32,915 nucleotides of DNA from a virus (taxonomy: Duplodnaviria > Caudoviricetes): IMG/VR virus record IMGVR_UViG_3300020045_011830, positions 1-32,915 of that record. The stretch is one strand, 5' to 3'. Both the position numbers and the translations under genes were made by a program. The notes below the pieces were generated by a model. It did no database searches. It was not told the DNA's origin and worked only from the letters and a program-made list of their open reading frames with translations. Each line of letters begins with the position of its first letter. Within the stretch, counting starts at the first letter, position 1. Below are positions 1,682 through 30,447 of this stretch, in pieces.

Positions 1682-2266
1682 ATGGTTGACAGAAACAAAA
1701 TTCGTACAGGGTCTAGTTTCCCATTACTCCCACATCCCAGCAATTATGCCATAAATGCCTGGGCGAGTCAATTGGTAGCGACTTTGCAGGGGTTCTTCCA
1801 GGCCGCCGCGCCGGTGAGTACGGAAATGATTCAAGACGAGGCGGTGAGCACGGAAAAGCTAGGGCAGAACTCTACTCACTTCTTCGACTTCACGCAGTCT
1901 GAAAACACCTTACCCTTGCCGCAAGTGCCAACATCAACACGCGTACTGGGAGAGCGGCTTAATATCTCCAGCTCAAAGTCAAATGTGCTCATTTGGTTTA
2001 ATCACATCTATAAGTCACCCCGGATAAAAACCTATATCCTGCTGGATAGCGCCACGCCAGCCAATTATCCAAGCAATAGTTTTCTGGTAGAGTCCTTTTC
2101 TTCCTCTCAGAACACCTCTCAGGCAATTTCATGGGCCTTCCAGAACGTAACGCCCGGCGCGCATTCTATCTCGATTTATTGCGGTGTAATCAGCCCCACC
2201 ACAGCGAATCACCATAACTCGATTAATCGGACGCTGACGGTTCTAACGATGAAGAATGCGCGGTAA
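1682..2266 (+). CDS. Hypothetical, probably virion-associated protein
   Basis: In-frame ATG at 1682 within ORF 1619-2266; 'IQDEAVSTEKL' segment and beta-rich C-terminus like phage tail accessory proteins; start uncertain. Confidence 0.5.
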   Translation: MVDRNKIRTGSSFPLLPHPSNYAINAWASQLVATLQGFFQAAAPVSTEMIQDEAVSTEKLGQNSTHFFDFTQSENTLPLPQVPTSTRVLGERLNISSSKSNVLIWFNHIYKSPRIKTYILLDSATPANYPSNSFLVESFSSSQNTSQAISWAFQNVTPGAHSISIYCGVISPTTANHHNSINRTLTVLTMKNAR

Positions 2267-2615
2267 TCCATGCGTCAATGCGGCCTGTGTAGTCTGGGTC
2301 TATCGCGTGGATTCCCTCAAGGAGAACCCCACGGATGATCGCATATGACGTTCCCAATTCCTTGCTTAACTGCTGTACGCTCTTTCTCTTCTCGTTTGCC
2401 AGCTTCCAGACTTTGGCCTTTTCCTTGTCCTTCAGGGATCGCGCCCTGGACTTCTTCCCTGGCCCATAATGAAAGATTTGCCGCGCCCGCTCCTTGGAGA
2501 ATCCGAAATAATCCCCAATGACTTGGAATGTTTTACCCTGCTTGCGGAAAGAAATGACCAGTTGATGAAGCTTATCCCGGTGTTCCGAACTACATTCAAA
2601 TTGCGGTGTTCCCAT
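2223..2615 (-). CDS. HTH DNA-binding protein (sigma-70 region 4-like)
   Basis: TFQVIGDYFGFSKERARQI helix-turn-helix, plus a second HTH-like segment SVQQLSKELGTSYAII. Confidence 0.7.
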   Translation of the reverse strand: MGTPQFECSSEHRDKLHQLVISFRKQGKTFQVIGDYFGFSKERARQIFHYGPGKKSRARSLKDKEKAKVWKLANEKRKSVQQLSKELGTSYAIIRGVLLEGIHAIDPDYTGRIDAWITAHSSSLEPSASD

Positions 2616-2697: not shown

Positions 2698-2916
2698 ATG
2701 TCATTACACGAGGATCTCACTAAAGAGGGATTGAACCCCCTCCGAATGCTCACGGCCACACTTTCGGAACTAGAGCCGGAAGCACGGGCTGACGCGCTGA
2801 TCAAACTCCTTGAGCTGATGTATCGTTATACGCCAAGCGATGAAGCCCTTGACCCCTCCAAGGATACCTCACTGAACGATTTCCTAACGAAACTGGATAA
2901 GTCCCAATGCAAGTAA
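2698..2916 (+). CDS. Small helical protein, possibly terminase small subunit-like
   Basis: 72 aa; GLNPL...ARADAL...YRYTP pattern shared with 10520-10804; overlaps start of next gene. Confidence 0.5.
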   Translation: MSLHEDLTKEGLNPLRMLTATLSELEPEARADALIKLLELMYRYTPSDEALDPSKDTSLNDFLTKLDKSQCK

Positions 2917-4352
2917 ATATCAGCCAGTTAATGAAAGACCTTGACAAGGAACTAAACGCGGCACTGAATGCCGGGAAGACTGACCTGGCGCTGCACATCC
3001 TCCAAACGAAAATTGCTCCACTGAACGCGGATCACCCCCATAACCCGGACATCCTGTACTACACTGGCACGGCGCTGATGCTGCTCAAAATGCCCGGTGT
3101 GGCTATCCCTTTGTTATTGCGTTGCCTGGACTACTCGCCCCGCCATTGGCAAGCGATGAACAACGTCGGATGCTGTTACAAACAACTTGGGAAGAATGAA
3201 CGGGCAAAAGAATTTTTCTTCGATGCCATGCGCCACGGTGGATCGCGAAACCCGGACCTCATGAACAATATTGGCGGCGTATTCACTACCGAGGGCGAAC
3301 CAGAACGCGCGATCATCTACGCCCGTGCGGCACACGAATACGCGGAAAAAGGCCAGCCTACCGCGCAGTACACATGGAATTTGGCCTTGGCGCTAATGGA
3401 ACTCGAAGATTGGGGTAAGGGGTTCCCCCTGTATGAATCCGGCATTCTCTCGAAAGATCGCGGGATCAAGCGCTACATGACCCGGCACGATAAGCTTATT
3501 CCACTGTGGGACCGGACGCCCGGAAAGCGCGTTATCCTCTGCTCTGAACAAGGTCTTGGCGACAATATTCTGTTCGCGTCCGCGTTCGAGTATGCCCATA
3601 AAGACATCCGCTTCTTGCTTGACTGTCATCCGCGACTATATACGCTGTTCCGTCGCAGCTTCCCGGATATCGAAATGTATAATACGTATAAAGCCGAACC
3701 GCCTTACGCCTGGTCAAAGGATCGAGAGTTCGATGCAACAGGAGGAATAGGAAGCTTGCTGGGGCTCTATCATCGTAGCGTCATAGACAAACCGCACCCC
3801 TACCTTGTCCCGGATCGCTGTAAAGTTGAGTACTGGAGACAGCGCTTGAAGTCCACCGGGCCAGGCCCGTACATCGGCTTTTCGTGGAAAGGCGGTACAC
3901 CCTACAGTGGGATCTGGTCGCGTAGTTTCTCGCCGAATGCCTACGATCCGCTGTTCGCTCTCGGTGGCCAGTGGTTCAGCGTGCAATACGATACGGTATC
4001 TGTTCAGGGCTTGAATCTCTCGAAATACGAAAATGTCCACCATTGGGCGGATGCGGTACAAACCTTTGACTACGACGATACGGCGGCTTTCATCAAGGCC
4101 CTGGATTACATCATTAGCCCACCTCAAGCGATTATCCACCTCGCGGGCGCGGTTGGGGTTCCCTGCATGGTGATGGTGCCTTTCGAGAGAGCGTGGCGGT
4201 ATCCGCGTGGGGATCGCATGTACTGGTACTCCAGCGTGAACCAAATCCACAAGCCAAAAGGCGTCACCTGGTCCGACTTCATCGCCGGGAAGGGCGTACA
4301 ACACATGAGGCAATTTATGATATTACACGATTCTATGAAGGTTTTAACATGA
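2907..4352 (+). CDS. TPR-repeat glycosyltransferase (GT-B fold, GT9-like)
   Basis: N-terminal TPR repeats (AMNNVGCCYKQLG, LMNNIGGVF); EQGLGDNILF, IGFSWKGG and ALDYII...IHLAGAVGVP motifs. Confidence 0.85.
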   Translation: MQVNISQLMKDLDKELNAALNAGKTDLALHILQTKIAPLNADHPHNPDILYYTGTALMLLKMPGVAIPLLLRCLDYSPRHWQAMNNVGCCYKQLGKNERAKEFFFDAMRHGGSRNPDLMNNIGGVFTTEGEPERAIIYARAAHEYAEKGQPTAQYTWNLALALMELEDWGKGFPLYESGILSKDRGIKRYMTRHDKLIPLWDRTPGKRVILCSEQGLGDNILFASAFEYAHKDIRFLLDCHPRLYTLFRRSFPDIEMYNTYKAEPPYAWSKDREFDATGGIGSLLGLYHRSVIDKPHPYLVPDRCKVEYWRQRLKSTGPGPYIGFSWKGGTPYSGIWSRSFSPNAYDPLFALGGQWFSVQYDTVSVQGLNLSKYENVHHWADAVQTFDYDDTAAFIKALDYIISPPQAIIHLAGAVGVPCMVMVPFERAWRYPRGDRMYWYSSVNQIHKPKGVTWSDFIAGKGVQHMRQFMILHDSMKVLT

Positions 4353-5011
4353 GAATAGCAATTGTAGGTAATGGCCCGAGCATTCTCGCCCATCCCGAAT
4401 ATGGGGAAATGATTGACAATCATGACAAGGTGATACGATTGAAGCGATGCGCGGCTACCCTGTCCTTACCCCTCCATTTCGGGTCTCGCACGGACATCAT
4501 CGCGGGCAGTATCGGGATCGCGCCCGAACTCTTGGACATCGGGAATAAGGATACCCACATATGGGTATTCACGGATAGTCGGCCCATGGCGCAAGAGGCT
4601 ATCAGGAGCGTAACGCAATTCATCTTTCAACAAAATAGAGTTGTTCGCTGTTTCAGTGATCTTTGCAACCAATTGGACGCGCGCTATCGAGACATGCGCA
4701 TTCCGTTCACGCCCGATGCGCAAACGGCACCCGTGGTAAATCTTGATGCGCCCATAGATGAAAACGGGCAAACGCTAGGACACAATCACACCTCGCAAGG
4801 GATGAAAGCGATTTGCTACGCGCTGCACCTATTGAGACCTGACAGGATCACTCTTTTCGGCTTCGACAACGTGAAAAACGGAACCTTCACATTCTCGCTT
4901 ACACGCGGGTTATCTCACCAGCGCTACCCCTTACACAACTGGCCCACGGAAAAGCTTCTGTTGGAAGCGATAGCGTTGGATCATCCTGACACGGAGATTG
5001 TATTCGCATGA
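4349..5011 (+). CDS. Glycosyltransferase, GT29 (sialyltransferase)-like
   Basis: ATGA-coupled start at 4349; IAIVGNGPS...IDNHDKVIRL (sialyl motif L-like) and TSQG...ITLFGFD (motif S-like). Confidence 0.75.
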   Translation: MRIAIVGNGPSILAHPEYGEMIDNHDKVIRLKRCAATLSLPLHFGSRTDIIAGSIGIAPELLDIGNKDTHIWVFTDSRPMAQEAIRSVTQFIFQQNRVVRCFSDLCNQLDARYRDMRIPFTPDAQTAPVVNLDAPIDENGQTLGHNHTSQGMKAICYALHLLRPDRITLFGFDNVKNGTFTFSLTRGLSHQRYPLHNWPTEKLLLEAIALDHPDTEIVFA

Positions 5012-6342
5012 AATTCATCACTTCAATTTCCTTGGCCGATTGGTTTCTTTACGGTCAGGAAACACTTTATAACCTGGATAAGAATCTGCCGATGAACGCG
5101 GCCTTTATCATCTACGCGGATGATCCGCTACCGCTGCCCAAACCATTTAGTCAGCGTGTCAGCGTGCGCCCGTATGTCCAGCCCGCCAGTATTTTGACTG
5201 AAATGGCCGCGCGTCTGCCCGTGTTTTCTGGCCGTATCGGCGGGAACTACGATTACCGGCATAACTATCGAGCATTCAGCCGCAAAGTGATGGCCATCCT
5301 GGAAACTCTCATGGCCGGTGAAACGGAAATGCTCTTCTGGATAGATGCGGATACCCGTTTTGTCACGCCGCCCCCCGCGACAGTTTTCGAGAGCTTTCTT
5401 GCGGAGCACCCTATTTGCGTGATGCAGCGCAACCAATGGCACCTGTGCAGCTCCTTTGTGGGGTTCAATCTAAAGGTGCCCGCCGTGATGGATTTCCTGG
5501 AACACTTTTGCTTACTCTACAGTAGCGGCCTGGTGCTCACGCTGCCACATTGGGATGATGCCGGTGTACTACATACCCTGCTATCCGAGAACCGCGATAC
5601 GATCCATGTGAAAGACCTGTCACCCCCCAATTTGCCGGAAGGCCCGGTTAACATTTTCGATATCGTGTTTGCCCAATATGGAGGGAATCATCTTAAGGGA
5701 AATATCAAGACCACCGCTACGCCGAGCTTACACCAGCCAAAACGATATAAGGTGATCACCGACACAGCGGCAGAACTGGGATTAGAGGGTGTCGGTAAGG
5801 TCTTCGTTGAAATCGGCACATGGAAGGGAGATCGCGCCGTGGATATCGCGAAAGCGTGTGGAACCAACTTTAAATATATTGGCTTTGATGTGTTTGAAAT
5901 GTACCCCGCCGCCCTCGATGCAATCGAAATGAACGCCAAGCCACATATCCCCATCGCGACAGTAAGAGACCGACTTAAGGCGGCAAATATTGATGCGGAA
6001 CTGATCCAGGGAAGCACACAAGATACACTCCCACTATACACGAGTAAGCACCAGAACTTTGCAGACCTGGTGTATATCGATGGCGGCCATTCCATGCAAA
6101 CGATCGTTCACGATTTGGAGTACGCGATGCGGATGGTCAAAGACACGGGTATCATCATCATGGACGACTATTACGAGGAATGCGATGAGGATACGATGTC
6201 TCGATTCGGTGCACAAACGGTATTGGGACTGCCTGGCGCTCCCCCTTATACCCTGTCCCCACCGGAGGGAGATTGGAAACGCGAAGGCGGAAAGATTAGA
6301 CTGGCCGTTATTCAAGGGAAACACTGCAAACATGGAACCTAA
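5008..6342 (+). CDS. Fusion of GT-A-like glycosyltransferase and class I SAM methyltransferase (Methyltransf_24-like)
   Basis: N-terminal FSRKV...WIDAD (DxD)...WDDA; C-terminal VEIGTWKG, YIDGGHS, GIIIMDDY. Confidence 0.8.
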   Translation: MKFITSISLADWFLYGQETLYNLDKNLPMNAAFIIYADDPLPLPKPFSQRVSVRPYVQPASILTEMAARLPVFSGRIGGNYDYRHNYRAFSRKVMAILETLMAGETEMLFWIDADTRFVTPPPATVFESFLAEHPICVMQRNQWHLCSSFVGFNLKVPAVMDFLEHFCLLYSSGLVLTLPHWDDAGVLHTLLSENRDTIHVKDLSPPNLPEGPVNIFDIVFAQYGGNHLKGNIKTTATPSLHQPKRYKVITDTAAELGLEGVGKVFVEIGTWKGDRAVDIAKACGTNFKYIGFDVFEMYPAALDAIEMNAKPHIPIATVRDRLKAANIDAELIQGSTQDTLPLYTSKHQNFADLVYIDGGHSMQTIVHDLEYAMRMVKDTGIIIMDDYYEECDEDTMSRFGAQTVLGLPGAPPYTLSPPEGDWKREGGKIRLAVIQGKHCKHGT

Positions 6343-7627
6343 AGTCTTGGCGGATGAAGTCGTCTACGCCTTCCCCGGTGGAACCGACATTGTAGAACCC
6401 TTCTGGAACACCGGAGGCACCACGCTGGTAGATATGGGGGGTGGAATTATTGTGTTGAGCGGTCAGATACCCATCGCCGACCCCACACAAACCTATGCCA
6501 ATCTCTACCCCACAATCTGGCGTCGCGATCATAATGGTTGGGAACAGATGCGCGTGGAAACCATGTTCGACACGAGGGAACCCGTGCCCCTGGCCAGACA
6601 CGGCGAGTCCATTTACGCTTACGAAAATCCTCTGCGCGTGGTGGATGGTAAAGGCGGAACGACACTACCGCACCTGGCACGATACGATAGTGAGGATACG
6701 GGCATCACTCCGGACTACATCCCCATTCCCTTTATCGCGGAACCACAAGCTCCCTTATTCACACTTTGGTCTTACCGTGGGATCGCGGTGGATCATTGCC
6801 AGAACACGCTGTTCTTGACGCAGCATACAGAGAACTATTACGCTTCCCTATATACGCTCATGACACCGACCGCTCAGAGTATTCGCACCGGCAAGATTGA
6901 TTACGTAAAGGAGTATTACATCACCGAACCGATGCGCGTGGCCTATCACTGTACGGCGATACACAATAACTTTGCCGTGGCGCTTGGGGTAACGGACATT
7001 TGGGAATATAACCCAGACTTCCTGGCCGTGCGTGGAAAATGGGCCTTTCGACGACTGATGTACACCTGGTCAACCAATCTTAGGGATTCACCCCTAAAAC
7101 CCTGGGTTGAACTCGACCGGGTTGAACAGTATGGCGGGCAGGTACAGCCGCTGGATATCTACCTGGATGATGATCACCGTGTTCACATTCTCTGGTATCG
7201 TGAGAGCATGGACGGCGGATTACAGAATGCGTTTTGGTCTGACATCCCGATCACCTACGAATTGAAATATGGGATCATAGAAAAAGGCGTCCTCATCCAC
7301 ACGCAAACGCTCTTGTATTACGATAACCGCGAAGGCAGATTTGGAGAGTATCCCGTTAAAGCCCGGTTCCAGATTACGCCAGAGAACCGCATTTTCGTTA
7401 TCTTCGGGGCTGGTGGTAGCGTGTACTCTTTGCATGGATACCGCTTCCGGTTAACGGAAATCACGGGATGCACGCACACGGAGCCGGTAACGCTCTGGAC
7501 AAGCGAATACTTCATTTTTAACTTTCAAAATACCAGCGTGCGTTCTGGCTCTCCAAAATCACGGATAGCTAATCTTGCCTTGTGGCAGGGCGGACAAGTG
7601 CGTTATCTCAGGATTCGGGTATGCTGA
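6332..7627 (+). CDS. Hypothetical protein, beta-rich (possible beta-propeller)
   Basis: ATG at 6332 overlapping the upstream gene end; 431 aa, aromatic-rich; inside the GT operon. Confidence 0.6.
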   Translation: MEPKVLADEVVYAFPGGTDIVEPFWNTGGTTLVDMGGGIIVLSGQIPIADPTQTYANLYPTIWRRDHNGWEQMRVETMFDTREPVPLARHGESIYAYENPLRVVDGKGGTTLPHLARYDSEDTGITPDYIPIPFIAEPQAPLFTLWSYRGIAVDHCQNTLFLTQHTENYYASLYTLMTPTAQSIRTGKIDYVKEYYITEPMRVAYHCTAIHNNFAVALGVTDIWEYNPDFLAVRGKWAFRRLMYTWSTNLRDSPLKPWVELDRVEQYGGQVQPLDIYLDDDHRVHILWYRESMDGGLQNAFWSDIPITYELKYGIIEKGVLIHTQTLLYYDNREGRFGEYPVKARFQITPENRIFVIFGAGGSVYSLHGYRFRLTEITGCTHTEPVTLWTSEYFIFNFQNTSVRSGSPKSRIANLALWQGGQVRYLRIRVC

Positions 7628-8130
7628 TCACGCCCGCGTATCTTGCCACGCAGAAGCGCGTGCATAAAGCACAGCCAGCATACGGGATAAGCAGCAAATG
7701 TGGCGTTGCCGCAGCCAAGCTCCTGCATGAAAGCTATGGCGTGGAAAGCATCATTGACTATGGTTGTGGGAAAGGAAGGCTAAAGATCCATTACCCCTAC
7801 GTCTCTATCACGGAATACGATCCTGCGATTGAGGGAAAGGATAACCCGAACCTCTGCCCGGCGGATGCGGTATTGTGCCATGATGTCATGGAGCATATAG
7901 AAGAACGTTGTTTACCTGACGTGATGCGGCATATGACCGCGTTGGCCCTCACGTATTTGTACCTGACCATTACCACGCGCCCGGCAAGAAAGATTCTTCC
8001 TGATGGCCGGAACGCGCACATTACGCTATGGACTCCCAAGGAATGGCTTACCTTCCTGGAGCAGTATTTGACGATTATTATGGAACGCGATGAGAATCAT
8101 GAACTCACTGTATTAGGGATACCTAAATGA
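7621..8130 (+). CDS. Class I SAM-dependent methyltransferase
   Basis: IIDYGCGKG motif I; CHDVMEHIE; DGRNAH. Confidence 0.85.
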   Translation: MLITPAYLATQKRVHKAQPAYGISSKCGVAAAKLLHESYGVESIIDYGCGKGRLKIHYPYVSITEYDPAIEGKDNPNLCPADAVLCHDVMEHIEERCLPDVMRHMTALALTYLYLTITTRPARKILPDGRNAHITLWTPKEWLTFLEQYLTIIMERDENHELTVLGIPK

Positions 8131-8807
8131 AAACGCTAAACATTTTTATCGGGATGGACAAGGATGAAATCCCAGCATATCACACGCTGTCAGATTCCTT
8201 GATCCGCTATTCGAGCCAGCCGCTGTCTATCTCGCCCATCAACCGGCGTATCTACAAAGAAGTTCTCTGGCGTCCGCGGACTACGCTGGAGAGTACGGAG
8301 TTCAGCACTGCCCGCTTTCTGGTGCCGTGGGCATCGGGCTATCGCGGGCTATCGCTCTTCATGGATTGTGACATGCTCTGTGTGGGCGATATCGCGGAAC
8401 TTTTCGAGGAGCAGGATATGCGCTGTGCGATCCAGGTCGTTAAAAAAGACCTCAAGGTGACAGCCACCACAAAAATGCTGAACGCAATCCAGACCGATTA
8501 TGCAAAGAAGTGTTGGTCCGCCGTGATGCTATTCAACAATGAACGTTGTAAGGCGCTTACACCGGATTATGTGGATAAGGCCAGTGGATTGACATTACAC
8601 CAGTTCAAATGGCTAACTTCCGACAGTCAGATAGGCACACTCTCGAAGCACTGGCAATACGTGATCCCGTATGATCCACCGGAAGACTTGCATGATGCGA
8701 AGATAGTTCACTTTACGGAAGGTGGCCCGTGGTGGAATAAGTATAAAGACATCCCATTTGCGGATGAATGGCGATCACATCATAAGCATATTGTGTGTGA
8801 TCCATGA
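8127..8807 (+). CDS. Glycosyltransferase, GT-A fold (GT8-like)
   Basis: STEFSTARFLVP, FMDCDML (DxD), WSAVMLFN, IVHFTEGGPW. Confidence 0.85.
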   Translation: MKTLNIFIGMDKDEIPAYHTLSDSLIRYSSQPLSISPINRRIYKEVLWRPRTTLESTEFSTARFLVPWASGYRGLSLFMDCDMLCVGDIAELFEEQDMRCAIQVVKKDLKVTATTKMLNAIQTDYAKKCWSAVMLFNNERCKALTPDYVDKASGLTLHQFKWLTSDSQIGTLSKHWQYVIPYDPPEDLHDAKIVHFTEGGPWWNKYKDIPFADEWRSHHKHIVCDP

Positions 8808-9313
8808 AAGTATCAAAGCAAGGAATTGAGTTTATACAACGGTTATCCACAAAGAACGGCGACCCGTTATTGTCCATTGGGAAAGACGCCTATGGCCAGC
8901 CTGTCATTGGCTATGGACATCGTATCCACATGGGCGAACGCAGCAAATGGGCGAACGGGCTGACGAAGGCTCAGGCCACAAAGATAATCAAGGATGATTT
9001 GCAGGGTATCGAGGAAGCGCTTGATCGGGAATCTTGGCCGTTCGTGTTACAGCAAAACGAATATGATGCCCTGGCAAGCCTGGCGTATAGCCTTGGTGGC
9101 GTATCTTTCATCGGGGTGAAAATGCGGCACAATATCAAGGCAGGAGATAAAAGCATTCTCGCGGAGGGCTTTTATACCCACACAAAGATCACAAAGGGCG
9201 GGAGCTACGTAAATAGCATAGATCTTATGAGTAGACGGCGTGCGGAAAGCCGGTTATTCTTACTAGGAGAGTATCATGGACAAGCCCCTGAACCCCCAAA
9301 GGGAAAGATATGA
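8804..9313 (+). CDS. GH24 lysozyme-like protein with apparently degenerate active site
   Basis: KVSKQGIEFI..., IGYGH, QNEYDALAS, RRRAE..LF motifs; expected catalytic Glu and Thr appear as Ser and Val. Confidence 0.7.
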   Translation: MKVSKQGIEFIQRLSTKNGDPLLSIGKDAYGQPVIGYGHRIHMGERSKWANGLTKAQATKIIKDDLQGIEEALDRESWPFVLQQNEYDALASLAYSLGGVSFIGVKMRHNIKAGDKSILAEGFYTHTKITKGGSYVNSIDLMSRRRAESRLFLLGEYHGQAPEPPKGKI

Positions 9314-13627: not shown

Positions 13628-14245
13628 TCACTCGTTCCAACCCTGTCCATAAAAGTAAGTAGTATCTTTGACCGCCTTCAAACAATACTCAAACGCTTCC
13701 GCGTATCCCTCGATTAATGGTGCTTTATCAAGACCATTGATGATGCGCCGGGCCTGGTAATAGTCGCATTTCTGCCCGGAAATGAACTGTGATAGGCGTG
13801 CGCCAGTGAAGAGGCCGTGTCGCATTCCATGGGACATGATCCAATAGGCATTGTCGGGCTGGAGGGCCTCGTCGGGATTGGCCCCCAAAGGCAAGCCCAG
13901 GGCGTTTCCCATCACCCGGTAGTTCCGTTTCCAGGTGAGCTGCACATACCCTCGGCCATAGTATTTGCGTCCTTGACTGTCGGCCACGCCATAAGATTTT
14001 CCCTTACCGCGTCCGATTTCCTCGATAGGGTGCCAGGTGTTCGCGCATTCGTGCTTGACTGTGGCGAGCATATACGCTGCCCATCGCGCGTCGGTCAAAT
14101 GGGGGTCAATCTCGAAGAACGTTAGCAATTCATTCAGGCCATCTACCTGTGGCTGCGACAGCGGTCCGAACTCATCGCGAAATCGGGTAAAAAAGCGATC
14201 TCGGTCAATGGACAGGGAACGAATTTCCGGTAGGGTCATAATCAA
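13628..14245 (-). CDS. GH19 (chitinase-like) endolysin
   Basis: AYMLATVKHE, YYGRGYVQLTWKRNY, ARRIINGLD. Confidence 0.9.
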   Translation of the reverse strand: MIMTLPEIRSLSIDRDRFFTRFRDEFGPLSQPQVDGLNELLTFFEIDPHLTDARWAAYMLATVKHECANTWHPIEEIGRGKGKSYGVADSQGRKYYGRGYVQLTWKRNYRVMGNALGLPLGANPDEALQPDNAYWIMSHGMRHGLFTGARLSQFISGQKCDYYQARRIINGLDKAPLIEGYAEAFEYCLKAVKDTTYFYGQGWNE

Positions 14246-22681: not shown

Positions 22682-23191
22682 TTAGTGGCGCTCCTGGCTG
22701 TTAGCGGAGTGCGGGGGACACTCCCCAGGAGCAATATCCCCAAAGTCCCCATCATAAACTTGTCTTTGGAACTTGTCAAGCAACGAATACGTGTAGTACT
22801 CGCCGCCCTCCCGCGATCCAGCCCACACGAACGGCATCATGTACCGCACCTGAAACGCGATGATGGACTGAAGGACAGCATGCGGACTCATCCGCGACAC
22901 GTAACGGTGGATGCGCACCGTGTCCACGGACGCTTCGATCACCACGGCCTTGCACACCTTCGACATCAGTCGCTCCAGCTCGCGCTCGAACCTGTCGCGG
23001 TTCTGCCCCATCAGGCACGACACCAGGTCATCCAGACTCTTTCGCTCAATCGCAATCTCCGCCTCCAGGCCAGGGAGAGAGTAGTCACCTTCGGGCAGCG
23101 CCACGCGCTCAATCTCTACTTCGCGTTTCTCGAAGAGGTAAGGTTTCTGCTCACGTGTGTCAACGAGGACCTTCAGAAGGGTGTTTTGCAT
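22682..23191 (-). CDS. ERCC4-domain nuclease
   Basis: VDTREQKP, GDYS, IERKSLDDL, RFERELER motifs. Confidence 0.9.
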   Translation of the reverse strand: MQNTLLKVLVDTREQKPYLFEKREVEIERVALPEGDYSLPGLEAEIAIERKSLDDLVSCLMGQNRDRFERELERLMSKVCKAVVIEASVDTVRIHRYVSRMSPHAVLQSIIAFQVRYMMPFVWAGSREGGEYYTYSLLDKFQRQVYDGDFGDIAPGECPPHSANSQERH

Positions 23192-23285
23192 GCGGGGCCG
23201 GTAGTATGGTACAGGGTAGGTGGTGATCGCCGCGTTGTAGCTATCGACATACGCGCCAGGGCTGATCCTGGCGCGTTGTTCCCGG

Positions 23286-23492
23286 TTATTTCAGCTGACT
23301 CATCATCTCGACAATGAGTTGCTCTAGATGCGCCATGCGCTCCAGCAGGTCTTGCTTGTCCTTGACGCACTCCAGGTGCCGCGCTTCCAGGAGCGACACG
23401 ATCCGCTGGAAGAGCCACCAGACGACACCGCCCAGGCTGGACACCGCAGCAACAAGGTGCGCGGGATCAATCGCGATGACGTCAGCCGACAT
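23286..23492 (-). CDS. Small membrane protein, holin-like
   Basis: 68 aa from ATG 23492; one TM helix followed by a coiled coil. Confidence 0.55.
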   Translation of the reverse strand: MSADVIAIDPAHLVAAVSSLGGVVWWLFQRIVSLLEARHLECVKDKQDLLERMAHLEQLIVEMMSQLK

Positions 23493-23507
23493 GGGTATCC
23501 CCGGGGG

Positions 23508-23775
23508 GGTCAATCCCCGCGTGTGCGGGGGAATCGCCAGGCTCAAGCCGAACACCGTGGAGTTTTGGGGTCGATCCCCGCGTGTGCGGGGGAATAGTGG
23601 TGACGTTCATTTGTTGCCAAAACCTCCAAGGTCAATCCCCGCGTGTGCGGGGGAATCCCGCGTGTGCGGGGGTATCTGCCGCATGGATAGGGTCAATCCC
23701 CGCGTGTGCGGGGGAATCCAGCCATTCTACCCCACTGCGGGGCTAAGAGTCAATCCCCGCGTGTGCGGGGGTATC
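23508..23775 (-). CRISPR. Type I-E-like CRISPR array A (5 repeats)
   Basis: 28-bp repeats GGTCRATCCCCGCGTGTGCGGGGGWATM at 23508, 23569, 23630, 23691, 23748 (last begins with A); three 33-bp spacers and one 29-bp interval; minus-strand 3' end GGGGATTGACC resembles I-E GGGGATAAACC. Confidence 0.95.
23724..23753 (-). promoter_or_regulatory. Promoter built from repeat end plus 29-bp pseudo-spacer
   Basis: TTGACT (23753-23748)-N18-TAGAAT (23729-23724), 5 bp before the next repeat. Confidence 0.6.
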
Positions 23776-24245
23776 TATGCGCCGTCCCCATTATCCGCCG
23801 TGGTGACGTTCATTTGTTGCCAAACCCTCCAACTTGAGTCTGGATAGGAAGTATTCTGCGCGGCACAGGTATACCCCTTGCTCGCCGCCTGGTAGGTCCC
23901 ACGGAAGAACAAGCTACCCCATCCTTGCGTCTGCACGGCCTTAGCCACGAAGGAGGCAGCGCTATACTCGCCAGGGCCTATTATGTAGCCCACAGATTTG
24001 ATACACGCATTCGTGGCCGGATGAAAACGCCAAAACCGGATCAAATACTGCTGCGAGTTGGTATTGTTTATGAACGTCTGAACGGTGATGAAATCATTAG
24101 CCAGGTCACAGGTGGTGGTATTTCCACACGACATCACGGGATCGGTAGTCGGATCTCCTGGGAAAAACCCCTGGTTCGGACCACAAGCCGCCAAGGCCGC
24201 AACGGAAAGGAAGAAGGAGAAGAACGCGCCGATCTTTTGAATCAT
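23775..24245 (-). CDS. Lipoprotein of unknown function between CRISPR repeats
   Basis: Signal peptide with lipobox LAAC; AGGAAG RBS; stop codon overlaps the repeat by one base. Confidence 0.8.
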   Translation of the reverse strand: MIQKIGAFFSFFLSVAALAACGPNQGFFPGDPTTDPVMSCGNTTTCDLANDFITVQTFINNTNSQQYLIRFWRFHPATNACIKSVGYIIGPGEYSAASFVAKAVQTQGWGSLFFRGTYQAASKGYTCAAQNTSYPDSSWRVWQQMNVTTADNGDGA

Positions 24246-24277
24246 GGTTACACTTCCTGAAAAGTTATTAATCCGCG

Positions 24278-24306
24278 ATTATCCCATAAGCCCCGTGGGG
24301 CGTCAA
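24278..24306 (-). promoter_or_regulatory. Sigma70-like promoter of the lipoprotein gene
   Basis: TTGACG-N17-GATAAT with extended TG; palindrome GCCCCACGGGGC in the spacer. Confidence 0.65.
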
Positions 24307-24315
24307 CCCTTAGAC

Positions 24316-24512
24316 GGTCAATCCCCGCGTGTGCGGGGGTATCTTGGCTTGCTCCGATTTCAAATCGACGCAAGATGGTCGATCCCCGCGTGTGCGGGGG
24401 TATCAATCTCTACTTCGCGTTTCTCGAAGAGGTACGGGGTCAATCCCCGCGTGTGCGGGGGTATCTATCCAGGAGATCGGCTCAGAATTGAGCCAAGGGG
24501 TCGATCCCCGCG
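24316..24512 (-). CRISPR. Type I-E-like CRISPR array B (3 full repeats and 1 half repeat)
   Basis: Repeats ending GGTATC at 24316, 24377, 24438; 14-bp partial repeat at 24499; three 33-bp spacers; exact 61-bp period. Confidence 0.95.
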
Positions 24513-24577
24513 AGCACAAACAGCCACCGGGGGTCCAGACCCTGTTCCTTCATCACGTCCAGCACCAGGATTTCCAT
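24482..24577 (-). CDS. Possible 31-aa peptide running through the half repeat
   Basis: TGATG coupling to the upstream gene; MEILVLDVMKEQGLDPRWLFVLAGIDPLAQF*. Confidence 0.3.
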   Translation of the reverse strand: MEILVLDVMKEQGLDPRWLFVLAGIDPLAQF

Positions 24578-25569
24578 CAATCGAAAATGCCCAGCTTCTG
24601 CGGAGGCTCTTTCCCACGCAATATGGTCTCATACTCTGGGCGATCCAGACTCAAGAAAGGGTGCTTGGCGCGTCGTGTCGCCGCATCCATCCACATGCGA
24701 GCCTCGACTGCCCTGGCTTCCATTTCTCCCGCCAGACGCTTGTAGAGTTCGTGTTTCGTTAGCCATTTCGGCAGCAAGGGGTTTCGCCGGGCGTAGTTTC
24801 CTAGCTCTGGATCGGATGGGGATCCGCCACGCTCAAAGCCCTCGTACCGTTGCACGCGATGCTGTAGTTCGTGGAGCAAGGTCTTTCGCCGGTCGAGCCC
24901 CTCGACGGGTTTCGACGACATCGCCATACTGCCTTCGCCCGCTGCCCCACGCACGCCCGGTGGTAGCTCCTTGATATACACGGGGTAGTCCTTGAGGAAC
25001 GGGTACTGCTTGAAGAGTTCGGGATGATCCAGCAGATTTTTTGCGTAGAACACGCCAGGCTTCATCTCGCCCGTGGCCGGGATCTTAAACTTTGCCTTGG
25101 AATCGTCAATCTCAAACCGCCACTGGTCATCCAGCCCCTTATGCCAGCCAGTCTTTGCCGCGACTTCCTCCCGCGAGAACTTCTTAGCCAGGGCCTCTAT
25201 CGCCTCTGCTCGCTCCCGCAAGGGCGCTTTCTCTGCCTTCGCTCCCGCGAATATGGCCGCTAGGGCACCGGAGAAGCCCTTAGCGCCCGCCTTGAGCTCC
25301 ATGGTAGGGTCAGGTGAGAGTAACCCACCACCCAGGTGTAAGGCCTTCTCTCCCGTCGTTTCTGGGGTAACTGTCGCCAAGAACTTACCCATCTGGTCCT
25401 TTATCCACTCAGACCCCCCCACGGACTTCTCGACCGGCGCCTGGCCGTCCACCATCCGCACCAGGTTCATCAGGGCCTGCATGGCGTCCACGGGCAGGCC
25501 AGCGGTTCCCGCCAGGGATTCGTTGATGCCAGAGCCCAGGAGGCCCAGGGATTTGTCGGCGGATGGCAT
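24577..25569 (-). CDS. LPD23-like polyvalent-domain protein
   Basis: TGWHKGLDDQWRFEIDDS, HPELFKQYP, LLHELQHRVQRYEGFERGG, LAGEMEAR; GAGGA RBS. Confidence 0.8.
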   Translation of the reverse strand: MPSADKSLGLLGSGINESLAGTAGLPVDAMQALMNLVRMVDGQAPVEKSVGGSEWIKDQMGKFLATVTPETTGEKALHLGGGLLSPDPTMELKAGAKGFSGALAAIFAGAKAEKAPLRERAEAIEALAKKFSREEVAAKTGWHKGLDDQWRFEIDDSKAKFKIPATGEMKPGVFYAKNLLDHPELFKQYPFLKDYPVYIKELPPGVRGAAGEGSMAMSSKPVEGLDRRKTLLHELQHRVQRYEGFERGGSPSDPELGNYARRNPLLPKWLTKHELYKRLAGEMEARAVEARMWMDAATRRAKHPFLSLDRPEYETILRGKEPPQKLGIFD

Positions 25570-28402: not shown

Positions 28403-28600
28403 ATATTTTCCCTTTTCCCAAACGGTGGTGGCAGATAAAAGGGCGGGCCAGCGTTTGGGATACTGGCCCGTTACTGCGGGTACGTTGAAGTGTTTGCCCT
28501 GGTTAGACGTCCAGTTGTTCAGTTGTCTAAGCTGAACTGGCAAGACGAATAATCTCTTATTTTCGTGTCCGTGTCAAGTCATTTCTTAGCTCACGCAGTG

Positions 28601-28628
28601 TTGACAACTTTCTAAACTATGTTATACT
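28601..28628 (+). promoter_or_regulatory. Early promoter, copy 1
   Basis: TTGACA-N16-TATACT with extended TG; 34/43 identical to 30367-30409. Confidence 0.75.
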
Positions 28629-28667
28629 GTAATCACAGTATCCGATTAACCCAAAGAGGACAACAGA

Positions 28668-29097: not shown

Positions 29098-30030
29098 ATG
29101 AGTAAAGAAATCAGTTTTCCTGTTCTATTGCAAAAGACCTTGCCGGAAATTGCAAAAGCCTTGCCGAAACATCTTACGGCAGAGCGCATGGGGCGCATTG
29201 CGCTGACCGCCTTCCGACAGAACCCGGCGCTTGCGGAGTGCGATCCAATGTCGATCATCGCGTGTGTTGTGCAGTCCGCGCAACTGGGTCTGGAGCTGGG
29301 GGTTAGCGGGCATGCTTTCCTTGTGCCGTATAACGGACGGTGCCAATTTGTTCCCGGCTGGCGTGGGCTGGTGGACCTGGTGAGCCGCGCGGGACGTAGC
29401 TCTGTCCACACGGGAGTAATCCATCAGGGGCAAGAGTATCGCTACACGCAAGGGGCAAGGCCGGACCTGGCGATCCTTACGGAGTCGGATGAGGATAAGC
29501 CGATCATCTACGCGTATGCCGTGGGTTGGGTAAAAGGCGCGGAATGGCCTGTCATCGAGATGTGGAGTGCCGAGAAACTCATGAAGCACCGCGACAGGTA
29601 TAACAAGGTAGGGAAGCGACACTACTCCTACGCGAACTGGGAAATGTACTGTCGCAAAGTTGTTTTGCTCCAGGTGTTAAAGTACATGCCTTCGTCCGTG
29701 GAGTTGTCAACGGCGATAGCGCTGAACGACGCAGCTGAAGTGGGTAATCAAGGCGTAACCGTGGAAGGAGCAATTGACTGGTCCTGGACGCCCCCTGAGC
29801 GCGATGAAATAGGTGCGCCGGATGGGAGTGAGCCATCCTCGACAAGAGAGGGCGTGAAGGTCGCGTATGCGGGAGAAATCCAGGCCATCAAGGAGCATTT
29901 GGGGATGGGTGATGTAGCCGAGGCTAAGCGGCTTTGGGCGGCGATCCCGCAAGCGGACCAGATTCAATTATGGGTCGCCCCGACCAAAGGCGGGTGTTTT
30001 ACAACGGAAGAGCGTGAGCAGTTGAGGTGA
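29098..30030 (+). CDS. recT: RecT-family single-strand annealing recombinase
   Basis: IAKALPKHLTAERM, CDPMS...SAQLGLE, AFLVPY, GWRGLVDL, WEMYCRKVV; GAGGA RBS. Confidence 0.92.
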   Translation: MSKEISFPVLLQKTLPEIAKALPKHLTAERMGRIALTAFRQNPALAECDPMSIIACVVQSAQLGLELGVSGHAFLVPYNGRCQFVPGWRGLVDLVSRAGRSSVHTGVIHQGQEYRYTQGARPDLAILTESDEDKPIIYAYAVGWVKGAEWPVIEMWSAEKLMKHRDRYNKVGKRHYSYANWEMYCRKVVLLQVLKYMPSSVELSTAIALNDAAEVGNQGVTVEGAIDWSWTPPERDEIGAPDGSEPSSTREGVKVAYAGEIQAIKEHLGMGDVAEAKRLWAAIPQADQIQLWVAPTKGGCFTTEEREQLR

Positions 30031-30363: not shown

Positions 30364-30373
30364 CTGCGCAGCA

Positions 30374-30401
30374 TTGACAACTTATCAAACAATGCTATAC
30401 T
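30374..30401 (+). promoter_or_regulatory. Early promoter, copy 2
   Basis: TTGACA-N16-TATACT with extended TG. Confidence 0.75.
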
Positions 30402-30447
30402 TTAATTACGAACAGAAAATAGTCTTACTAACCATAGGAGCATTTCA

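Follow-up and report, generated by a model that had tools for sequence, protein, structure and literature searches.

A spacer in a phage-borne type I-E mini-array nearly matches the neighbouring lipoprotein gene of its carrier and probably targets the allele of a relative

Mini-arrays without cas genes are known from the viruses SPV1 and SPV2. According to the accessible part of Medvedeva et al. 2019 (PMC6858448), the orthologous sites of the carriers show point mutations or deletions. The same text reports that the targets lie close to the arrays and states that the reason for this is unclear. Faure 2019 (quoted here via PMC6858448, PMC7099407 and PMC11656645, each available in part) described phage mini-arrays whose spacers hit adjacent genes of close relatives and not of the carrier. 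The review PMC11656645, in its accessible sections, agrees on this pattern. Another group of small cas-less arrays comprises the crlRNA/CreR mini-arrays and the phage Cracr RNAs (10.1101/2023.03.03.530964, 10.1101/2024.10.29.618823). As far as the available text of these preprints goes, their guides pair partly with nearby DNA and bind the promoters of genes for Cas proteins or toxins.

The window analysed here (the whole stretch of 32,915 nt) comprises the whole of a 32.9-kb record labelled as a virus, and it is podophage-like. Genes for a P22-like portal, a major capsid protein, TerL, a primase and RecT were assigned with Pfam and PHROGs. No cas gene was matched on the contig among the main ORFs and part of the small and alternative-frame ORFs (30 + 11 ORFs scanned with Pfam, 36 with PHROGs, 34 with PADLOC). 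The locus consists of two type I-E mini-arrays, A and B, with a lipoprotein gene between them, all on the minus strand. In minus-strand order an LPD23 gene is followed by array B, a promoter-like site and the lipoprotein ORF of 156 aa. A repeat and a pseudo-spacer with a second promoter-like site come next, followed by array A, a 68-aa ORF and an ERCC4-domain gene. Array A (23508–23718) is composed of four 28-nt repeats (starting at 23508, 23569, 23630 and 23691) and three 33-nt spacers with a period of 61 nt. Spacer A2 (23597–23629), the feature under study, lies between two intact repeats (23569–23596 and 23630–23657). Array B (24316–24512) comprises a half repeat (24499–24512), three full repeats and three 33-nt spacers.

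As far as the SPV1/SPV2 arrays are described in the accessible text, the present locus resembles them in the lack of cas genes, the small number of spacers, the host-type repeats and the promoter (here predicted) in front. Its spacers also match orthologous loci of the carrier except for point changes that would spare the carrier, and the targets lie near the arrays. Unlike SPV1/SPV2, the carrier is a tailed bacterial phage with type I-E repeats, and two three-spacer arrays lie on either side of a lipoprotein gene that is carried as cargo and has a promoter-like site of its own. No reciprocal sibling was found in our virus and metagenome searches. With the arrays of Faure 2019, as quoted in the sources above, the locus shares the predicted targeting of adjacent genes of closely related phages, the sparing of the carrier and a leader unlike that of the host. 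Those arrays usually have one or two spacers and host-identical repeats, whereas each array has three spacers here and no exact host repeat was found. The crlRNA/CreR and Cracr elements, judged by the accessible text, are similar in being small cas-less arrays with a guide that matches nearby DNA, but A2 matches the 3' end of a coding region. In place of partial complementarity and promoter overlap we found 32 of 33 identical positions and a site 47 nt upstream of a promoter-like −35. A virus genome, no cas match, a short array with cellular-type repeats and a mutated carrier site, whose effect we infer, occur together in this locus. The A2 pattern agrees with what the available portions of these papers give as typical of virus-borne mini-arrays, and it is of an already known kind. 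In the literature searched, which covers few subscription journals and some papers in part, no mini-array tied to a lipoprotein or to homing was found.

To assign the CRISPR type we rely on the repeats. Near-identical repeats occur in nine GTDB stretches. In one of them (locus L005) they follow genes for Cse1, Cse2, Cas7, Cas5, Cas6e and Cas1 on the same strand. From this arrangement, the phage arrays are assigned to type I-E and the minus strand is taken as the crRNA strand. Differences between the phage repeats and the type I-E repeats in GTDB are confined to the first few bases: the phage repeats start with GATT, GATA or TATT, whereas the host arrays found start with GTTT or GGTT, and a GAT- start was seen in none of the nine stretches. 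The hairpins and 5' handles are intact (repeat hairpin z of −3.6). The phage-type repeat had no match in viral contigs and none in metagenome contigs, and an Rfam search returned nothing real. From the half repeat at the head of array B an extended hairpin can fold (24499–24540), and it ends at the normal Cas6 cut position.

A promoter scan yielded two sigma70-like sites, each matching the consensus at 10 of 12 positions, where 0.9 sites were expected in shuffles; they are consensus matches only. The first, TTGACG-17-GATAAT (24278–24306, minus strand), is located upstream of the lipoprotein gene and is predicted to read through into array A. The second, TTGACT-18-TAGAAT (23753–23724), belongs to an element of an extra repeat (23748–23775) and a 29-nt pseudo-spacer (together 23719–23775, minus strand) and marks the predicted start of array A. 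No terminator-like site was found in 23100–24800. Both promoter-like sites (24278–24306 and 23724–23753) follow or overlap the 3' end of a repeat, and a CCCC...GGGG palindrome is located between −35 and −10. This palindrome resembles the repeat hairpin; a shared operator or an origin of the promoters from repeats is possible on the basis of the sequence.

Spacer A2 is identical to positions 23800–23832 (minus strand) at 32 of 33 bases. The only difference is A at 23622 against C at 23825. Counted on the minus strand, it is the eighth base of the 33-mer (+7 in the E. coli register); read as a codon change, it converts Val141 to Phe. The target covers codons 138–149 at the 3' end of the lipoprotein gene. 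Its minus-strand 5' flank ends in ...CTCAAG, so that AAG stands directly next to the 33-mer and, in the E. coli register, AGT takes the PAM position (23832–23834, minus strand; codon 138, Ser). All coordinates given in the initial annotation, and both of its readings of the flank, were reproduced. Its estimate of about 50 bp to the array promoter also held, since the −35 of the promoter-like site of array A (−35 at 23753, −10 ending at 23724) is 47 nt from the target. In the window with the arrays masked, 300 shuffles of A2 gave best matches of 18–22 of 33, compared with the observed 32. The flanks of spacer and target show no extended match (0 of 12 positions on the left, 4 of 12 on the right). 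A match that ends at the spacer edges is what spacer acquisition gives and what a misassembled duplication usually does not.

A2 had been called the second near-self spacer of the locus, and this is borne out by spacer B2 (24405–24437, minus strand). B2 matches the carrier's own ERCC4-domain gene (22682–23191) at 23111–23143 with 32 of 33 identical bases; the mismatch is synonymous and located at seed position +2, and the PAM is AAC. The single mismatch thus lies in the seed for both near-self spacers (+7 and +2), with a chance of approximately 0.045 for both at n = 2; the PAM deviates from AAY in one of the two targets. The targets are separated from their spacers by 1262 nt (B2) and 171 nt (A2). 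For two distances below 1.3 kb, a rough fraction-squared estimate gives 0.012, again at n = 2. Among 63 viral loci with related repeats (398 33-mers; flanks of about 4 kb, mostly long arrays) no comparable near-self spacer was found. The few matches in that set were duplications, palindromes or hits of 25–26 of 33. The best match of spacer A3 (23536–23568, minus strand) in the window has 22 of 33 identities and lies in TerL. It falls within the range of the A2 shuffles and is not conserved at the protein level, and it was discarded as a target. In spacer A1 (23658–23690, minus strand), 14 unique nucleotides precede 19 nt that copy the start of the repeat, exactly 33 nt in total. A host array (L001, ~6271–6303) contains a 33-nt spacer with about 21 repeat-like bases that is akin to A1. 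A1 was possibly acquired from the leader–repeat junction of another mini-array, i.e. as a spacer against a CRISPR array.

For the PAM we adopted the E. coli register, in which PAM position −1 is occupied by base 1 of the 33-mer; PMC7677007 and PMC8482600, in their accessible parts, were used as support for this register only. The PAM of the host is most likely AAY, judging from the B2 target, the B1 target and the first bases of host-array spacers. AAC flanks both the B2 self target and the foreign target of B1. Six host-array loci from four genomes carry near-identical repeats, and 107 of their 118 spacers have C or T as the first base. Three loci were left out of this count: L008 duplicates L007, L003 has another repeat end (C or T in 66 of 101 spacers, G in 30) and L009 has one spacer. 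In the phage, five of the six full spacers start with C or T. The AGT at the A2 target is one transition away from AAT. In the AAY system of V. cholerae, AGY is a weak PAM, 9–50-fold below AAY (PMC12767519, available in part). In E. coli the seed comprises positions 1–5 and 7–8, and mutations in PAM or seed weaken binding and reduce or abolish interference (accessible text of PMC5904413). These data on PAM strength and seed come from other organisms and are extrapolated to the host of this phage. On that reading, the AGT PAM, non-optimal for an AAY system, together with the +7 seed mismatch fits an escape of the lipoprotein site from self-attack. Since AGT is still weakly active in V. cholerae, the escape may be incomplete. 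The initial annotation had proposed to determine the host PAM; a likely motif was derived here from spacers and targets.

Spacer B1 (24466–24498, minus strand) is identical at 33 of 33 positions to a non-array contig of 175 nt from a freshwater run (X2). The match has non-repeat flanks and an AAC PAM, and it indicates that the arrays contain real foreign-derived spacers. It sits in an open reading frame that resembles the start of phage proteins, putatively of the Rha family; no match to this family was found among the window ORFs scanned. Run X2 also contains a relative of the locus. A 151-nt piece of its lipoprotein gene is about 94% identical (nine differences), and the five differences listed give N60H, N63T and Q65G. 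All five (24052–24068) change residues and cluster in codons 60–65, hinting at a variable loop in this single low-depth contig. The start–promoter–repeat junction is present in the relative, but the repeat breaks off after about 16 nt (24316–24331) into other sequence, which suggests a missing or altered array B in this relative. Each X2 piece is a single contig of 151 nt with a depth of about 2, and the A2 target is outside them. Apart from this suggestion, they show no more than that diverged lipoprotein alleles exist. The numbers of run X3 are identical to those of X2, and both were counted as the same data. The contigs of runs X1–X3 cover neither array A nor 23800–23835, a gap that is evidence in neither direction.

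Searches for relatives returned little. IMG/VR contained no relatives for the lipoprotein, ERCC4 or capsid protein. Scans of IMG/VR, JGI metagenomes, GenBank phages and plasmids, from which records very similar to this genome may have been excluded, yielded no close genome. The A2 core had no matches in metagenome contigs or viral contigs; B1 and A3 had none in viral contigs. The array region did not match GenBank phages, and matches to plasmids (six of them) were at the level of the repeat only. The search for lipoprotein homologues with a WRFW allele, which had been suggested as a check, came back empty: there were none in metagenome or viral contigs, no protein homologue was detected, and the X1–X3 contigs miss the site. 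Host spacers gave no link either, with 0 of 252 spacers from L001–L009 and 0 of 568 from L001–L072 convincingly matching the phage. Five genomes that share the repeat match the phage only at repeats. Identity to the ERCC4 homologues does not exceed 66%; those with a name come mostly from Desulfobacterota-type organisms, and all are too distant for a host assignment.

The lipoprotein gene (23775–24245, minus strand) encodes an ORFan of 156 aa, and its stop codon overlaps the following repeat by 1 nt. A hydrophobic signal and an LAAC lipobox at residues 18–21 (Cys21) can be read from the sequence. No family or homologue was detected in Pfam, PHROGs, NCBIfam or the PDB. Homologues were found neither near its own length nor among shorter proteins nor in a full HMMER scan, apart from one borderline MBG-repeat protein (E = 7.8e-4), which was not counted. 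Matches in the ESM Atlas were below 0.9, and a single-sequence AlphaFold model reached a mean pLDDT of 43.6. Llp of phage T5 and Cor are phage superinfection-exclusion lipoproteins. The present protein is similar in being a small phage lipoprotein with its own promoter-like site and a lipobox signal. In contrast to this likeness, there is no sequence match in the four databases, and a role in exclusion is unsupported.

Based on these data we consider it likely that A2 directs Cascade–Cas3 of the host against the lipoprotein allele of a close relative, with the copy in the carrier escaping through the +7 mismatch and the predicted weak AGT PAM. The arrays would be transcribed on the minus strand from the promoters at 24306 and/or 23753. 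Host Cas6e would process the array RNA, which would then be loaded onto host Cascade. The A2 guide would lead Cas3 to a coinfecting sibling or to the ancestral allele of this lineage. The true target is predicted to carry Phe141 and probably Asn138, the latter giving an AAT PAM. The Asn138 prediction is weaker than that of Phe141, because the spacer may have been acquired next to AGT, or by a one-base slip from AAG. Judging from the E. coli and V. cholerae data, the AGT PAM and the seed mismatch together would cut self-interference. Primed adaptation against the carrier could be a residual cost; it is a recognised cost of such spacers in the available part of PMC7099407. Both putative escape changes are non-synonymous, which counts against this explanation. 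Attack on the lipoprotein cassette of a relative was one of two readings offered initially; it fits the AAY motif, the AGT PAM with the seed mismatch, the X2 allele and B1, and the predicted WRFW allele was not found. On this reading, the locus adds a further, fairly clean bacterial case of a phage that targets other phages via a borrowed type I-E system. It offers a PAM that can be deduced, together with a natural double escape (PAM and seed) that alters the targeted protein, and it can serve as a test case for why the targets of mini-arrays adjoin the arrays.

The proximity of the targets could also reflect homing of the cassette, which we regard as doubtful. Here the guides would cut a coinfecting relative near the homologous locus, and recombination involving RecT (29098–30030, plus strand, a gene that bears on this reading only) and the ERCC4 nuclease would copy the arrays and the resistant alleles into the survivor. 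It is similarly doubtful that arrays A and B act together with the lipoprotein gene as an exclusion cassette that spreads itself, with the resistant, amino-acid-changed lipoprotein allele copied along. The self-like targets bracket array A at 25 nt and about 365 nt from the outer repeats, the X2 relative has promoter and lipoprotein gene with only a half repeat at the position of array B, and genes for RecT and an ERCC4 protein are present on the contig. Target proximity is moreover called unexplained in the accessible text of PMC6858448. Against homing, Cas3 degrades DNA processively instead of cutting once. B1 matches DNA without a counterpart in the contig, the searches gave no sibling genomes in which to look for conversion tracts, and primed acquisition could equally account for the proximity. 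If homing were true, the locus would represent a natural CRISPR-guided drive among phages that forces turnover of a surface lipoprotein, and the clustering of mini-array targets beside their arrays would be explained.

The second reading of the initial annotation, non-lethal binding of Cascade at 23800–23835 that represses the lipoprotein gene or the promoter of array A, is improbable. With 31 of 32 positions paired, a weak PAM could permit binding without efficient cutting, suboptimal PAM and seed mutants still bind (accessible part of PMC5904413), and the site is 47 nt from the promoter-like −35. The crRNA is, however, in the sense of the lipoprotein mRNA and would pair with the template strand at the far 3' end of the gene. 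The target lies at about −83 to −118 from the start of array A, guessed at 7 nt past the −10 box. In E. coli without cas3, targets on the template strand of transcribed regions and sites upstream of promoters gave no repression (PMC4288209, in the text available). Template-strand pairing and a position 47 nt or more upstream, both non-repressing in these Cascade tests, thus disfavour regulation. In addition, the known regulatory guides are only partly complementary and target promoters (bioRxiv 2023.03.03.530964, available in part), whereas A2 is full-length and near-perfect. The sister spacer B2, whose target is in the interior of a coding gene, follows the same pattern.

Alternatively, the arrays might act mainly as RNA anti-CRISPRs, producing decoy RNAs that fill host Cascade with harmless guides; the near-self match would then be a leftover. 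RNAs of this type have been described (PMC11656645, accessible sections), and the strong promoter-like sites, the GATT/GATA/TATT repeat starts unlike the GTTT/GGTT of the host arrays found and the partial repeat within A1 would suit such a role. It is nevertheless quite improbable, given full-length spacers, a perfect B1 target with a consensus PAM, and intact repeat hairpins and 5' handles. An assembly duplication, named at the outset as a way for the targeting idea to fail, fits poorly and is highly improbable: although no independent read from X1–X3 spans a spacer–repeat junction or the target, the copy has the exact length of one spacer, lies between repeats that keep the 61-nt register, carries a single base difference and has unmatched flanks, B2 repeats the pattern, and the independent run X2 supports the lipoprotein–promoter–repeat junction.

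Further features were observed elsewhere in the window. A cluster of TPR, sialyltransferase-like (PF00777) and methyltransferase genes extends from 2907 to 8807. Two unlike endolysins are encoded at 8804–9313 and 13628–14245. A small HTH protein (2223–2615, minus strand) has weak matches below the cutoff to sigma70 region 4 and to the CRISPR repeat-binding protein Cbp1 (E = 0.0098), which probably reflect a generic HTH likeness. Two 43-nt copies (28594–28636 and 30367–30409), 79% alike, contain a TTGACA-17-TATACT promoter-like site and are located in front of early genes.
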